Positions 24,986-30,499 of a stretch of 44,881 bases of DNA are shown here, one piece after another. Each line of letters begins with the position of its first letter. Position 1 is the stretch's first letter. A model generated the notes under the pieces. It was not told where the DNA came from. It saw only the letters and a program-made list of their open reading frames with translations, and made no database searches. The position numbers and the translations under genes are program-made. The DNA comes from Escherichia phage SM_A2: the sequence record PP920552.1; one strand, 5' to 3'.

Positions 24986-25540
24986 TTATTTAAGTGCGCC
25001 AGTTACCAGTGTTTTTTCCATGTTACGGAAATCTTCCGGCGTCATGCAGATTTTCGACCCGTCTTCGCCGGTGAGCACGACCATAGGCTGGACGTCCTGG
25101 GCTACAACTCCAAAATTGGCGGCCCTAACAGTCTTGCCGAAAGAGGCCACCGTGTCCTCCGCAACGCGAATTGCGCTGTTATACGCATTAATCTCACCGT
25201 CAAGGCGCACGGACAGGCCTTTGAGGCTGTCGAATTGTGCTGCCGTTGTATCGATCTGAGTCTCGTCATGCACGGTCATGTAAGACTCGCCCAGCAGGGC
25301 GGCATACGCCACCAGATCCACGATGTTATCTTCCTGGTGCTTACGGTGCTGGCGCACCAGCTTCAGGCAGATCAGGAAGGTCCAGGCTTCTTGCTCGGAC
25401 AGGTCGCGACCGGTAAGCGCGTTAAACACGGCGGCGATTTGTTTAGCGCTGCGTTCTTCTTTCGCGTTGTCATAGCCGTTTTCTTTCCCGCGCTGTTCCA
25501 TAGTGGTGGCGGCGTTTTTGCAGTATTCGTATGCTTTCAC
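24986..25540 (-). CDS. hypothetical protein
   Basis: 184 aa; probable GTG start at 25540 with AAGGG RBS; no confident motif. Confidence 0.5.
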   Translation of the reverse strand: MKAYEYCKNAATTMEQRGKENGYDNAKEERSAKQIAAVFNALTGRDLSEQEAWTFLICLKLVRQHRKHQEDNIVDLVAYAALLGESYMTVHDETQIDTTAAQFDSLKGLSVRLDGEINAYNSAIRVAEDTVASFGKTVRAANFGVVAQDVQPMVVLTGEDGSKICMTPEDFRNMEKTLVTGALK

Positions 25541-25587: not shown

Positions 25588-25617
25588 ACTATAGTGCAAC
25601 CAACCTATTGGTTGCAA
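25588..25617 (-). promoter_or_regulatory. sigma70-like promoter with palindromic TGCAACCAA-N4-TTGGTTGCA motif (leftward)
   Basis: Minus-strand reading: TTGCAA (-35, fwd 25612-25617), 18-nt spacer, TATAGT (-10, fwd 25588-25593); overlaps the stop of gene 25605-26075; followed by hairpin GGGGGC-AATACA-GCCCCC (25561-25578). Confidence 0.5.
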
Positions 25618-26075
25618 GTGAATTTTGCAACGTTTATTGCGTAAATTTTCGGGACCAAATCACCACACGCCCGACGAATTGCCGCGATGTTCTTCTCGCA
25701 ATCTTCAATGATGACCAGTTCCGACACGTCCGCATAGCAGACCATTTTGAACACGGCGCACGCCTTAAACTCTGGCGGCGGGGTGTCGTCCAGCATGTGG
25801 CGCATAAACAACCGGCCTGTCGGGAATACCTCCAGTTGTTCGGCGGTGGTTTCCCAGCATTCCCGCTGCCGGTTGGTCAGATACGCGATTTCGAAGCCTT
25901 GCTCTTTGTACATGGTCAGCAGCGGCAGCATATCCATGTTCAGATCTTCGCGGACGTGCGCCTTGTGCCACTTCGCCCAAAAGGTGGATTTAGTTTTTAT
26001 GCCCGGCACAAGGTCGGCGCGCGCATCGCTTGATCCATTAATAACGCCATCCAGATCACAAATCAGTAATTTCAT
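25605..26075 (-). CDS. HAD-superfamily phosphatase (putative nucleotidase)
   Basis: N-terminal motif LICDLDGVI (DxDG[TV], HAD motif I); 156 aa; downstream motifs consistent with HAD fold. Confidence 0.6.
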   Translation of the reverse strand: MKLLICDLDGVINGSSDARADLVPGIKTKSTFWAKWHKAHVREDLNMDMLPLLTMYKEQGFEIAYLTNRQRECWETTAEQLEVFPTGRLFMRHMLDDTPPPEFKACAVFKMVCYADVSELVIIEDCEKNIAAIRRACGDLVPKIYAINVAKFTCNQ

Positions 26076-26276: not shown

Positions 26277-26762
26277 TCAACGATTAAGATATTCACGTAG
26301 CTCACTCTCGCTCATTATTTCAATTTGTGCGCCGCCGGTGGGCGGCGCTTCGTCAAAGATTATCAATTGCTGGCACTTGTTATTGCTCGGCCCGACTTCA
26401 CCGGTGACTGCATGTATGAATCGGACCCGCCAGTCCAGAAGAATTATCAGGTTTGCAGTCTTCCTGGCCAACCGCGCCCACTTTGTCGACGTGTCCTGAT
26501 TCAGTAGCATGACGGTCCGACGTCCATGCGCTGCGCACTTGACCCACGGCAGCGGATCGGAATACGGCGGGTTGCACCACTTCCACCCTTTCAACTCTGA
26601 CCAGTCCGCATCGAGCGCGCTGTGCTCTGCCGTGAAGTAACGCGGTAGAAGGTGGTTGTCATCGCTCGCCGCCATGTCATATCGGAATCGGTACTTCCGG
26701 CGCAGCGGTTTAAATAAAGCTGGCGGCGTGCGCCAGCTATCCTTCTGTTCACTCTTCAGCAT
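26277..26762 (-). CDS. DNA N6-adenine methyltransferase (phage Dam-type)
   Basis: Motifs WRTPPALF near the N-terminus, DMAASDDNH, and catalytic NPPY (WCNPPYSD); 161 aa, typical of small phage Dam-family enzymes. Confidence 0.8.
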   Translation of the reverse strand: MLKSEQKDSWRTPPALFKPLRRKYRFRYDMAASDDNHLLPRYFTAEHSALDADWSELKGWKWCNPPYSDPLPWVKCAAHGRRTVMLLNQDTSTKWARLARKTANLIILLDWRVRFIHAVTGEVGPSNNKCQQLIIFDEAPPTGGAQIEIMSESELREYLNR

Positions 26763-27207
26763 GGCCTGGGTCTATCGCGTATAAAGGGACTTTATTGCCG
26801 GTTTTCATAATGCGCTGGACGCGCTTTGACTCCTCGGCGCTAAGCGGTCGGCAATCGGAGTGGTAGCTACCGTTTGCGCGCCACGCCATAAGCACCAGGT
26901 CTTTCCGGTCGATCTTAGACTGGCGACCTTTGGGGCGCACGTACTCCTCGGCACGTTTGCAATGCTCACGCAAACCATCGGCAGTGATGCGGTTTAGTGC
27001 AACGCTGGTTGTGTATCCGGTGCGCTGCATAATCCCCATCAATTCGAAAAGCAGTTCTAAGCGCTCCTCTAACTCCTTGCGCATCTTTTCCTCGCCTTCA
27101 TAGCTCGCCAGGTAGGTATCCGCCAACGCGTTCGCACGTTCGGCCTGTTCGCGGGCTTCGAGGCATTGCGCGGCCCAGTAATTTTTCTCTTCTTGTAAAA
27201 TTTTCAT
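26749..27207 (-). CDS. hypothetical protein
   Basis: 152 aa; ATG 27207 with GGAGA RBS; charged coiled-coil-like N-terminus; no motif recognised. Confidence 0.5.
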   Translation of the reverse strand: MKILQEEKNYWAAQCLEAREQAERANALADTYLASYEGEEKMRKELEERLELLFELMGIMQRTGYTTSVALNRITADGLREHCKRAEEYVRPKGRQSKIDRKDLVLMAWRANGSYHSDCRPLSAEESKRVQRIMKTGNKVPLYAIDPGHAEE

Positions 27208-27288: not shown

Positions 27289-27612
27289 TCACGCATAAAA
27301 ATTTGGGTCGCGCGCTACGTCTACCAGGTAAAGGTTGCTTATGCGGTTGCCGTAGTGCCCTGGGGTGCGCTGGCGGCATACAACGGCGAAGCCTGGGGGG
27401 ATTGTATTGCCTGTCGCAATAATCCACGCCACGCGTGCGCCAGATAGCGTCTTGCCATTATATTCGATACGTGTGCCCCCATCGGCGGTATTGATGTTAC
27501 CAATTTTGCAGCCGGTGGACTTCAGACGAATGACGCCGGTTTTGCTGTCGTAGGAGAATAACTGGTTAGTCATTGCAACCGAAAAATCAATGGCTTCGAA
27601 TGTAGTATTCAT
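27289..27612 (-). CDS. degenerate HNH-like domain protein
   Basis: Segment IEYNGKTLSGARVAWIIATGNTIPPGFAVVCRQRTPGHYGNRISNLYLV resembles phage HNH-type layout, but the expected catalytic His positions are Ala/Arg; ATGA-coupled to the upstream MTase-like gene. Confidence 0.45.
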   Translation of the reverse strand: MNTTFEAIDFSVAMTNQLFSYDSKTGVIRLKSTGCKIGNINTADGGTRIEYNGKTLSGARVAWIIATGNTIPPGFAVVCRQRTPGHYGNRISNLYLVDVARDPNFYA

Positions 27613-28319
27613 TTTAAATTTTCCTCATTGACTGCTATCGCGAAGCCGCGCGGGGTGAGCGACCGGATTAATTTTGTGCGGGCGGACTTGCCTCCGAGGC
27701 GACTATACTGCTTCGAGTACCCTTTTTCAACGAATACAGGCTTTTTCTCAGGCATACGAAAGCCGTTGCCGGTCCATAAGCAGGTCAGCTTCGGATATGA
27801 ATCGCGGGCGTTGATGTATTCCGGGAAGAGCGGGTGCGCGTCATCCTCCGGCAGATAGCCGCCATACTCCCACGGATCAAACGAGTGGTCTGGCTTGCGC
27901 CACTGGGTGGAAAGCACACTGCGCGGATTCTCAATCATATACGGAACCTCAAAGAAGTCCCCCAGAAAAGCGGCGATCTTCGCGGTGCGCACTGCCTTAA
28001 GCTGAAAGGCGGGGTCTTTTGCACGCTTGCGCGGGAAAGCAGGCGCGCCGCTCACTGCCAGATCCGTGCACGGTGGAAACGCATAGATGATATCTGGCGT
28101 ACCGAAATCGCCATTCATCGCACGGTCTACAAAGTCCAGATCGATAAACTCATTGCGATACCGGATTCCGCGACCATAAATCCGGTAGTCCAGATAAGAC
28201 CCATGATCGGCTTCGGAGTAGTTGAAACAGTAGCATTTGTGCCCCATTTCGGCAGCACGCTCGATCATCAAGCCGCTGCCGTCAAACAACGACCAGATAG
28301 TCATTTTTGCAATAGTCAT
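27609..28319 (-). CDS. compact C5-cytosine methyltransferase-like protein
   Basis: Motif I LFDGSG (FxGxG), motif IV FPPC (Pro-Cys), motif VI ENP (ENV-like); only 236 aa, so no obvious room for a full target-recognition domain; ATGA-coupled to the helicase stop. Confidence 0.55.
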   Translation of the reverse strand: MTIAKMTIWSLFDGSGLMIERAAEMGHKCYCFNYSEADHGSYLDYRIYGRGIRYRNEFIDLDFVDRAMNGDFGTPDIIYAFPPCTDLAVSGAPAFPRKRAKDPAFQLKAVRTAKIAAFLGDFFEVPYMIENPRSVLSTQWRKPDHSFDPWEYGGYLPEDDAHPLFPEYINARDSYPKLTCLWTGNGFRMPEKKPVFVEKGYSKQYSRLGGKSARTKLIRSLTPRGFAIAVNEENLK

Positions 28320-29740
28320 TTGCGCGCCTTTTTAGCTTTCATGTATTCCATCAAGTCGTCCTGAATATCTCGCTTACTGTCGCGACGCTCGGCGACCAAT
28401 TCGTCCAGTGTCCCGCGCGCCTGGATAATGTAGACGAATACCGGACGTGGGTGTCCGGCTTGCATCTGGCGAACCGGCCCGATACGTTCAACAATCTGCG
28501 AAAAGTGCTCAAAGTTCCAGGTATCAGAGAAGATTGCCAGGTGATGCCCGCCGTCCTGCAAGTTAAGGCCGTGGCCTGCCGATGCCGGGTGTGCAAACAT
28601 GATGGGGATCTCGCCCCTGTTCCACGCTTCCATATCCTTATTGCCCTGCTTACCTTTACCCAACGCGACGCCGTGTGGAAATTTCTTCTTAAGACGTGCC
28701 AGGTCATGCTTATACTGATACGCAACGAGCAACGGCGCACCGTTCAATTCCTCCACGATACTTTCCAGTGCGTCCAGCTTCGCGTCGTGAATCTTCACCC
28801 ACTCGTCGGTCCGTTCGCCGTCTTCGTCCACCTTATACACAGCGCCGGAAGCAAGCTGAAGGCACTTAATTGTCTTCGATGCCGCGTTCGCCGCTTCCAC
28901 TGTTCCGCTTTCCAGTTCGGCAAATAGCTCGCTTTCAAACTGGTCGTAAATCTTGCGGGCTTTCTTCGGCAGGTCCACAACAACCGGCGTATAGATTGGC
29001 TTGTCGCACCCGAAGTATTCAGCCGCGTCAACGGTGAGGGATACATCTGACAGACGTTGTTGTATCTCTTTCTCGGAGTTCTTTAGCGGAGCGTGCTGCA
29101 TAGTGAAGCTGCCCGGCTTAACAGGCTTGCTAATGAACCAGCGGTCGGTAAATGCCTTATAGCTACTGCCGAGGCGTTCGCCACCGTCGACAAACCACGT
29201 CTGACCCCATAAGTCTTTCAGCCCGTTGGGTGCGGGTGTGCCGGTAAGGTTAATCCAGCGCTTGACGTGTTTATGTGCAATCGCTGCCAGTGCGCGGGCG
29301 CGCTTGCTCCCCTGCTTGCTACGATAGCCTTTCAGCTTAGTCGATTCATCGGCAACAACGACCGTAAAGGGCCACGCATCGCCGTAATAGTCGACCAGCC
29401 ACTCAACCACATCGTAGTTAACACAAACCACGTTAGCGTCGCTCTCAAGCGCGGCAATACGGTCCTTCTCCGGTCCGGTGCCGTCTACGACCAGCAGGGA
29501 TGAGAACCGCCATTTCTCCTGTTCCGGGGGCCATGTGCCGGAGGCAACGCGTAGCGGGGCCAGCACCAGTACGCGGTCCTCATGATGGGACAGGACGCCA
29601 GTCTGGAACATTTTATTCAGCGCCCACATTGTCGCGCCGGTTTTACCGGATCCCATTGTCGCCCATATATTACATCGCTTATGCTTGAGGATGAACGCGG
29701 TTATCAACTTCTGATATTCGCGGCGTCGGAATCGTGCCAT
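28316..29740 (-). CDS. SNF2/DEAD-like superfamily-2 helicase
   Basis: Walker A GSGKTG, DExx-like VVADEST, C-terminal helicase region; probable start at MARFRRREYQ (29740) rather than the track start 29830. Confidence 0.85.
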   Translation of the reverse strand: MARFRRREYQKLITAFILKHKRCNIWATMGSGKTGATMWALNKMFQTGVLSHHEDRVLVLAPLRVASGTWPPEQEKWRFSSLLVVDGTGPEKDRIAALESDANVVCVNYDVVEWLVDYYGDAWPFTVVVADESTKLKGYRSKQGSKRARALAAIAHKHVKRWINLTGTPAPNGLKDLWGQTWFVDGGERLGSSYKAFTDRWFISKPVKPGSFTMQHAPLKNSEKEIQQRLSDVSLTVDAAEYFGCDKPIYTPVVVDLPKKARKIYDQFESELFAELESGTVEAANAASKTIKCLQLASGAVYKVDEDGERTDEWVKIHDAKLDALESIVEELNGAPLLVAYQYKHDLARLKKKFPHGVALGKGKQGNKDMEAWNRGEIPIMFAHPASAGHGLNLQDGGHHLAIFSDTWNFEHFSQIVERIGPVRQMQAGHPRPVFVYIIQARGTLDELVAERRDSKRDIQDDLMEYMKAKKARK

Positions 29741-29744
29741 TTCT

Positions 29745-29963
29745 TTATTCCGCCTTTTTCCAGACTTCGGTTTCACTGTTCCAGTTCCTTTTTGTAGCGT
29801 CGTAGTTGGTGGCGTGTCCGATGTGCACACTGGTAGCCCGGAAGCTCTTGAATTTTTGCCAGCACACCGTCAACGGCAGCGGATCATTCATGCCCGCGAT
29901 AAACCATACGCGATCGCCCGGTTTACATTCGCCCAGCTTGGTGAGTCGGTAATGTTCTTTCAT
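29745..29963 (-). CDS. hypothetical small protein
   Basis: 72 aa from ATG 29963 with GGGAGA RBS; preceded (in transcription direction) by hairpin GGCGGG-ACAAG-CCCGCC. Confidence 0.4.
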   Translation of the reverse strand: MKEHYRLTKLGECKPGDRVWFIAGMNDPLPLTVCWQKFKSFRATSVHIGHATNYDATKRNWNSETEVWKKAE

Positions 29964-30006: not shown

Positions 30007-30180
30007 TTATTTTTGTTCTGCACGGTAGCGGCGCTGCCGTTCGCGCTCTTTCTTATTGCGGCACGATTTGCACTCTGCCCGATACCCGTCTGGACTGCGC
30101 GCAGTCTTACCGGTGTATTTGTGGAACTGGGATAGCGGCTTGACACATCCGCAATTACTACAACGTTTTTCTTCAATCAT
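30007..30180 (-). CDS. small zinc-ribbon protein (putative)
   Basis: 57 aa from ATG 30180; CxxC...CxxC (CSNCGC ... CKSCRNKK) and basic C-terminus; the track ORF 30007-30315 is trimmed to avoid overlap with the VRR-NUC gene. Confidence 0.45.
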   Translation of the reverse strand: MIEEKRCSNCGCVKPLSQFHKYTGKTARSPDGYRAECKSCRNKKERERQRRYRAEQK

Positions 30181-30211
30181 CTCTAAAATCCTCGATATGG
30201 CTAACCGGCAC

Positions 30212-30250
30212 ACTATACCGCTATGCGACCAATTCAGCAACCAATAAATC
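30212..30250 (-). promoter_or_regulatory. sigma70-like promoter with tandem ATTGGT(T/C)GC motifs (leftward)
   Basis: Minus-strand reading: ATTGGTTGCTG (-35 = TTGCTG, fwd 30235-30240), 17-nt spacer containing ATTGGTCGCA, TATAGT (-10, fwd 30212-30217); lies inside the 3' end of the VRR-NUC gene. Confidence 0.45.
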
Positions 30251-30499
30251 GCAGTCGGATATGCTGTCGATAACGCGAACGTCAGCACCGCGGCGGGCCA
30301 TTCGCTCATGTTCACGTACCTGGTGCGGCTTAGGTTTTCCTCCGGGGCGCTTCACTTCGACGAACACTATTTTGCCGTTGATGATAATAATCAGGTCGGG
30401 CGCACCCGCGCGCCCCTCCCATGCAAGTTTTCGGCAGAATCCGCCGACCTCTTTCACCCGTTTCATCAGGTGACTTTGAATCTTGCCTTCTGGTGTCAT
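30221..30499 (-). CDS. VRR-NUC domain nuclease
   Basis: 92 aa; PD...(D/E)xK-type core APDLIIIINGKIVFVEVKRPG characteristic of VRR-NUC. Confidence 0.75.
   Translation of the reverse strand: MTPEGKIQSHLMKRVKEVGGFCRKLAWEGRAGAPDLIIIINGKIVFVEVKRPGGKPKPHQVREHERMARRGADVRVIDSISDCDLLVAELVA

Follow-up and report, generated by a model that had tools for sequence, protein, structure and literature searches.

The 44,881-nucleotide (nt) stretch of DNA from Escherichia phage SM_A2 analysed here (sequence record PP920552.1; "the window" below denotes this whole stretch) contains on its minus strand, at 27609–28319, an open reading frame (ORF) of 236 codons. We identify its product, at a probability of roughly 0.85, as a stand-alone S-adenosylmethionine (SAM)-dependent DNA cytosine-5 methyltransferase (C5-MTase) of the phage "mini-Dcm" family. 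The present analysis establishes its fold, its catalytic residues, its membership of this family and its orthology to an experimentally studied enzyme. The original prediction, which preceded our work on the same DNA, had pointed to a compact ORF of 236 amino acids (aa) with the sequences LFDGSG, FPPC and ENP; all of these are seen in the translation, and the strand, which had not been given, is the minus strand. The parts of the gene are as follows, with conservation counted over 76 diverse family members.

27609–28319, minus strand: coding sequence of the mini "Dcm-like" C5-cytosine DNA methyltransferase, 236 aa.
28272–28292, minus strand: motif I, the SAM-binding loop, SLFDGSG, residues 10–16, aligned by hhalign to SLFDGIATG of DNMT3A and DLFAGLGG of M.HhaI.
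28047–28079, minus strand: motif IV, the catalytic loop, FPPCTDLAVSG, residues 81–91, with the nucleophile Cys84, aligned with SPCNDLS of DNMT3A and FPCQAFS of M.HhaI.
27924–27932, minus strand: motif VI, ENP (a variant of ENV), residues 130–132, within IENP (129–132); E130 in 76/76, N131 in 74/76 and P132 in 76/76 members.
27792–27854, minus strand: family-specific insertion between strands β6 and β7, residues 156–176, LPEDDAHPLFPEYINARDSYP, from the AlphaFold2 (AF2) secondary structure at a predicted local distance difference test (pLDDT) score above 90.
27765–27791, minus strand: motif VIII-like strand KLTCLWTGN, residues 177–185, an AF2 strand at 179–184; K177 in 75/76, T179 in 75/76 and W182 in 76/76 members.
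27630–27698, minus strand: C-terminal conserved block LGGKSARTKLIRSLTPRGFAIAV, residues 208–230, in which at least 90% of members keep R219, P223, G225 and A229.

Motifs I, IV and VI of the C5-MTase superfamily are present and can be aligned. In motif I, F12-D-G14-S-G16 fits the pattern FxGxG, with L11, D13 and G16 kept across the family, which more widely reads F-D-x-(T/S)-G. The catalytic loop lies within AFPPCTDLAVSG (residues 80–91), where P83-C84 forms the Pro-Cys pair of motif IV; the codon of Cys84 occupies 28068–28070, and this residue is found in 76/76 members. Motif VI, ENP, also agrees with the superfamily, and hhalign aligns it weakly with FENV of DNMT3A. Invariant residues are C84, E130, P132, P149, Y175, W182 and P190, while L11, G26, position 33, F81, P82, L87, G91, K98, A109 and N131 are conserved in at least 90% of members, as are D173, K177, T179, R219, P223, G225 and A229. 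The protein adopts the seven-stranded Rossmann-like catalytic domain of C5-MTases. When family profiles were compared by hhalign with the single verified sequences of M.HhaI and DNMT3A, the match to DNMT3A reached 73.6% probability over motifs I–IV and that to M.HhaI was much weaker, significance being confined to motifs I–IV.

Beyond the catalytic motifs, the protein is unusually short. Only ~23–25 residues (185–207) lie between β7 and the C-terminal helices, ~23 as against ~90 in DNMT3A and ~120 in M.HhaI (verified sequences), and the small domain, which comprises the target-recognition domain (TRD) and motif IX, is therefore essentially missing. The enzyme is thus essentially a catalytic large domain alone, most similar to that of DNMT3A/3B, as had been anticipated in the proposal of a C5-MTase without a full TRD: the AF2 model and the alignment leave ~23 residues after β7, and the catalytic Cys and Glu are invariant. 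By comparison, the catalytic domain of DNMT3A/DNMT3B has both motif IX and a target-recognition loop of ~50–65 residues, neither of which the window protein possesses; DNMT3A also has two motif VIII arginines, forms an oligomer with regulatory domains and shares only 12–16% sequence identity with the window protein.

Two further regions are characteristic of the family. The β6–β7 insertion, in which D173 and Y175 are invariant or nearly so, would have no counterpart in DNMT3A or M.HhaI, as judged from a hand alignment. The adjoining β7 strand, K177-x-T179-C-L-W-T-G-N, resembles R-A-R-Y-F-W-G-N of DNMT3A when matched by hand, past motif VI, where the alignment has no statistical support; in this hand mapping, likewise without statistical support, K177 and T179 appear to sit where the two arginines of QxRxR would be. 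The C-terminal block is probably the motif X helix together with the terminal helix. It resembles LLGRSWSVPVIRHLFAP of DNMT3A or, alternatively, the motif IX sequence RxLTPRE, and two forced alignments disagree on this: either L-G-G-K211-S, which is like LLGRS of DNMT3A, is the candidate for motif X (GN), or RSLTPRG is motif IX and there is no motif X.

The gene belongs to a large and already annotated phage family. The window belongs to a Dhillonvirus coliphage and is ~93% identical to Sodalis phage SO-1 and EK99P-1. The 4-kb region around the gene is 92–94% identical to that of Sodalis phage SO-1, EK99P-1, welsh, Gluttony and ~150 other Dhillonvirus genomes, whose records name it "C-5 cytosine-specific DNA methylase", "DNA methyltransferase" or "hypothetical protein", and GenBank already holds proteins 97–99% identical to the window protein under such names. 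The methyltransferase is a core Dhillonvirus gene, ordinary for this group of phages. PHROG 757, "DNA methyltransferase", matches the window protein at E 3e-83, and pVOG 4567 is common to the gene of a close Dhillonvirus relative (welsh_20) and that of the T1-like phage aaroes. At 90% identity the family as a whole falls into more than 2,800 clusters, and 1,511 of the 50,697 phage records contain a homologue, a share of ~3% among sequenced phage genomes; these include phages of Escherichia, Klebsiella, Salmonella, Shigella, Campylobacter, Vibrio and Arthrobacter. Its 2,028 representatives (50% identity, E up to 1e-3) are nearly all 200–260 aa long and match the profile from end to end; compact size is therefore the normal state of the family and not a truncation. 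PF00145, the Pfam family of C5-MTases, was weakly matched by 30 of 48 close relatives, and 3 of 10 tested passed its gathering score; these (P0023, P0026 and P0052) scored 24.7–28.5 bits over profile positions 4–94 of 324 only, corresponding to motifs I–IV. In one 563-aa relative (P0266), the mini C5-MTase domain is fused to a D12-class N6-adenine DNA methyltransferase (PF02086, E 2.5e-48). Three others (P0241, P0254 and P0263) have N-terminal extensions of 170–200 aa with no Pfam match.

A second in-frame ATG is found at 28304 (Met6), 15 nt downstream of the first. We favour the first ATG, and hence the longer form, because a Shine-Dalgarno-like element, AAAGG, stands 7 nt upstream of it at 28327–28331. 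Both ATGs, 15 nt apart, lie in the duplicated sequence ATGACTAT (28290–28319, minus strand), and many homologues match the shorter, 231-aa form of the methyltransferase.

Functional evidence comes from a close relative of the window protein. The protein bas06_0055 of phage KarlJaspers (Bas06) is 54% identical to it (236 versus 236 aa, E 3e-86) and is encoded by a 711-bp gene annotated as "Dcm-like C5 cytosine methyltransferase". Phage K42 is a T1-like KarlJaspers strain, and its mutants that escape the retron Ec86 all disrupt the 711-bp Dcm-like gene (bioRxiv 10.1101/2023.08.16.553469). In the same study (bioRxiv 10.1101/2023.08.16.553469), an AlphaFold model of the K42 enzyme was superposed on DNMT3A; C82, E128, K175 and K176 were assigned catalytic or substrate-binding roles, the two lysines being placed by the superposition at the DNMT3A substrate-binding site. 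Wild-type K42 Dcm raised 5-methylcytosine (5mC) in the multicopy single-stranded DNA (msDNA) of the retron, as measured by liquid chromatography coupled to mass spectrometry (LC-MS), and activated the retron, while the quadruple mutant did neither; furthermore, alteration of the CCTGG site in the msDNA stem-loop abolished defence (bioRxiv 10.1101/2023.08.16.553469). The enzyme was active when expressed alone, McrBC-positive MG1655 cells that lacked the retron showed no marked growth defect when they produced it, and some toxicity on overexpression in BL21 was noted by the authors (bioRxiv 10.1101/2023.08.16.553469). Later papers cite the K42-type enzyme as an established trigger of Eco1.

The residues of K42 Dcm taken as functional, C82, E128, K175 and K176, correspond to C84, E130, K177 and L178 of the window protein. 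The last position varies in the family (K in 30, R in 14 and T in 6 of the 76 members). The two proteins share the 711-bp gene length, the 236-aa size, the catalytic Cys/Glu/Lys, the DNMT3A-like predicted fold and the PHROG and pVOG assignments; they differ in that K42 and KarlJaspers belong to Hanrivervirus (Drexlerviridae) and the window phage to Dhillonvirus, in their genomic neighbours and in the replacement of K176 by Leu178. Formation of 5mC and triggering of retron Ec86 have been shown for K42 Dcm only. A second studied relative, gp52 of Pantoea phage AAS23, is 51% identical to the window protein; it was identified by HHpred only, and Dcm methylation of AAS23 DNA was reported from its digestion with EcoRII. 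For orthologues, the literature has shown that 5mC is formed, that the retron is triggered and that phage DNA resists EcoRII. The gene had implicitly been treated as uncharacterised, a view that has to be given up in light of the GenBank annotations and of the work on the 54%-identical K42/KarlJaspers relative.

The label "Dcm-like" is a functional one and does not denote close homology. Dcm of E. coli and Shigella (M.EcoRII-type, PDB 3lx6 and 3me5) has 472 aa and a full TRD, and neither the window protein nor its profile gave a sequence-level match to it.

A number of observations weigh against our assignment, or against its extension to the CCWGG site. The window protein had no match to any methyltransferase in Pfam, NCBIfam or PDB sequence searches, and none to PF00145 even at E up to 10, thus missing the gathering score of 22 bits; the only direct match in these searches, to ToxD kinase at E 0.65, was rejected as spurious. 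The Arg of motif VIII has apparently been replaced by Lys and Thr and the Glu of motif II by Asn, and the Asn of motif X is not evident. In particular, the motif II acid is lacking at position 33, which is Asn in the window, K42, KarlJaspers and AAS23 proteins and Asp in 72 of the 76 members of the wider family. As for the site, the CCWGG specificity given in the retron paper is an assumption carried over from E. coli Dcm, and MG1655 has a host Dcm, yet methylation of the msDNA was poor when the phage enzyme was absent (bioRxiv 10.1101/2023.08.16.553469). Because the host Dcm left the msDNA poorly methylated, the sites of the host and phage enzymes may differ, and at 54% identity the specificity of the window protein could also differ from that of K42 Dcm. 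The EcoRII resistance of AAS23 DNA is ambiguous because the host of this phage may itself carry a Dcm. Finally, no simple relation between the methyltransferase genes of phages and their resistance to restriction emerged from the BASEL study.

The published data point to a Dcm-like CCWGG site, which by analogy would also be the site of the window protein. The window contains 150 CCWGG sites, 0.91 of the maximal-order Markov expectation. An apparent over-representation of CCWGG (150 versus 71 in dinucleotide shuffles) was dismissed, as it disappears under the maximal-order Markov model, and the ratio of 0.91 therefore tells no more than that CCWGG is not avoided. Over the whole window (1–44881), 6-bp palindromes have been purged, with an observed/expected ratio of 0.67 compared with 1.01 for non-palindromic hexamers; nine palindromes with an expectation of at least 10 are absent, as against 2 of 3,452 non-palindromes. 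The absent palindromes are GGCGCC, GCCGGC, AAGCTT, GGGCCC, CGGCCG, GCATGC, CACGTG, CTCGAG and AGTACT, each expected 10–45 times on both strands. Among shorter sites, CTAG stands at 0.19 and GATC, which is not purged, at 0.81. The unpurged state of CCWGG and GATC fits the Dcm-like and Dam methyltransferases that the phage itself encodes.

From the conserved residues and the established mechanism of C5-MTases, a scheme for the action of the enzyme can be proposed. Cys84 would attack C6 of a flipped-out cytosine and Glu130 would protonate N3 of this base, upon which the methyl group of SAM would be transferred to C5 and β-elimination would free the 5-methylcytosine. The usual small domain is replaced by the ~23 residues after β7, with the 21-residue family-specific insertion placed ahead of this strand. 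The target is probably the inner cytosine of CCWGG, as with E. coli Dcm, on replicating phage DNA. A 5mC pattern other than C-5mC-WGG would be risky in K-12 hosts, where these phages grow, on account of McrBC; this, the unavoided CCWGG, the purged 6-bp palindromes and the lack of marked toxicity of K42 Dcm in retron-free MG1655 lend circumstantial support to a role in protecting phage DNA at a Dcm-like site. Methylation at CCWGG would shield ~150 sites from EcoRII-type restriction while leaving them invisible to McrBC, and its cost would be that the same methylation activity is sensed by retron Ec86/Eco1.

With a TRD lacking, the enzyme might instead have a relaxed specificity, as the original prediction had also suggested, or a very short one, methylating many or most cytosines and thus providing broad anti-restriction cover; we consider this decidedly unlikely. 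The ~23 residues that stand in place of a conventional TRD are in keeping with such a specificity, as are the closest structures, DNMT3A/3B, which read only a dinucleotide, and the toxicity noted for overexpressed K42 Dcm in BL21. Abundant 5mC preceded by a purine (R-5mC) would, however, be expected to be restricted by McrBC, while K42 Dcm had little effect on the growth of McrBC-positive MG1655 lacking the retron, and these phages grow on K-12. Moreover, sensitivity to type I–III restriction systems is comparatively high in Dhillonviruses and Drexlerviridae, and the strong avoidance of 6-bp palindromes suggests that such sites are not protected by modification. Instead of losing its specificity, the family may choose its targets in an unconventional way, through a DNMT3A-like homodimer, through the β6–β7 insertion or by acting on hairpins or replicating single-stranded DNA, in which case the site may not be CCWGG; we regard this as rather unlikely.

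A different cytosine modification chemistry, which had also been suggested for this gene, finds no support in the behaviour of the 54%-identical K42/KarlJaspers orthologue, which raised 5mC as determined by LC-MS, an effect lost in the catalytic mutant. The specific form of this idea would be a carboxymethyltransferase that takes carboxy-S-adenosylmethionine (carboxy-SAM) from the host (E. coli CmoA) and forms 5-carboxymethylcytosine, like CmoX or the engineered M.MpeI E45D/N374K. CmoX of Synechococcus phage S-B43 (PDB 8yf3; PMC12783734) is a close structural match, and in the window protein a Lys may hold the decisive motif X position, with Asp/Asn at motif II; as a smaller possibility, this candidate Lys and the motif II residue might also admit carboxy-SAM. 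CmoX is nonetheless larger, with 372 aa, a TRD and an SPPC signature, where the window protein reads FPPC, with Phe instead of Ser before PPC. The basic residue of motif X is itself uncertain, as is the motif X assignment, and K211 is found in only 36 of the 76 members. K42 Dcm, which has the same GGKS and FN residues, yielded 5mC, and DNMT3A, with Arg at this position in a hand alignment, uses SAM. CmoX further comes with a phage CmoA and usually an amide ligase, neither of which is annotated in related genomes, EK99P-1 among them, or in the neighbourhoods examined; the annotation of one related complete genome includes no gene for CmoA, a ligase, TET or a glycosyltransferase. Carboxymethylation is accordingly very improbable, and we retain SAM-dependent methylation as the activity of this protein.

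The surroundings of the gene in the window are as follows.

28316–28319, minus strand: ATGA overlap of the helicase TGA with the methyltransferase ATG, read in the sequence.
27609–27612, minus strand: ATGA overlap of the methyltransferase TGA with the ATG of the downstream 107-aa HNH-like ORF, read in the sequence.
28316–29830, minus strand: upstream SNF2-type helicase, ORF of 504 aa (PF00176, E 1.8e-10; PHROG 62, E 5e-157).
27289–27612, minus strand: downstream HNH-like ORF, 107 aa (PHROG 99 "HNH endonuclease", E 2.7e-16; Pfam HNH_3, E 0.11).
26277–26762, minus strand: Dam-type N6-adenine DNA methyltransferase, the second DNA methyltransferase of the phage (PF05869, E 4.3e-36).
25605–26075: HAD/PNK-type phosphatase (weak PF03767 match; PHROG 415).

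What had been said of this neighbourhood holds throughout: the ATGA overlaps exist at both ends of the gene, the SNF2 helicase, Dam-type methyltransferase and HAD phosphatase are borne out by their PF00176, PF05869 and PF03767/PHROG 415 matches, and the description of the downstream gene as a degenerate HNH is fair, given the contrast between its PHROG 99 match and its marginal match to Pfam HNH_3. In T1-like and rV5-like phages, the methyltransferase gene has different neighbours; being coupled by ATGA to a helicase and an HNH-like gene is an arrangement specific to the genus.

These neighbours bear on two related proposals, a DNMT2-like C5 methyltransferase acting on RNA (tRNA) and a half-enzyme that receives its target recognition in trans, for example from the coupled HNH-like protein. 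Both are hardly credible. The orthologue expressed alone methylates DNA, namely the msDNA, a fusion to a DNA adenine methyltransferase occurs in one relative, the genes flanking the methyltransferase vary from one phage group to another, and the downstream ORF matches HNH endonucleases and not methyltransferase motifs. The HNH-like ORF in particular was rejected as the source of a TRD, since the surrounding genes are not conserved and K42 Dcm is active by itself.

Some further annotations in this region deserve correction or caution. The mechanically called helicase ORF begins at a GTG at 29830 (504 aa), and because relatives annotate 1,425 nt (474 aa), the real start of the helicase is probably the ATG at 29740 (MARFRRREYQ). 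The 152-aa ORF at 26749–27207 (minus strand) is called "DNA ligase" by PHROG 10530 and RefSeq, has no Pfam or NCBIfam match and is far below the size of a ligase; one depositor remarked, "Possible DNA ligase but no evidence", and the name looks like a propagated annotation. The 102-aa ORF at 30007–30315 (minus strand), where relatives annotate only a 174-nt coding sequence, matches a "Lar-like restriction alleviation" PHROG at E 1.9e-18 as well as endonuclease VII and HNH PHROGs, and may be a further anti-restriction or zinc-ribbon nuclease-like gene. The ORF at 24986–25540 (minus strand) encodes a protein with DUF6378 (PF19905, E 1.2e-9); its relatives in PHROG are labelled "phosphofructokinase", probably through annotation drift.

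The compact C5-MTase of the window is a typical member of a known and annotated phage family for which experimental evidence exists, and is in this sense largely already known. At ~230 aa, and with no recognisable TRD, it is among the smallest known C5-MTases, which makes the family of interest for understanding minimal methyltransferases and as a source of a compact tool enzyme. For the phage, the gene is also a liability, because retron Ec86/Eco1 senses the activity of the enzyme. If its targets were indeed chosen in an unconventional way, or if carboxy-SAM were also accepted, no smaller sequence-selective C5-MTase would be known, and the enzyme would represent a new principle of recognition.

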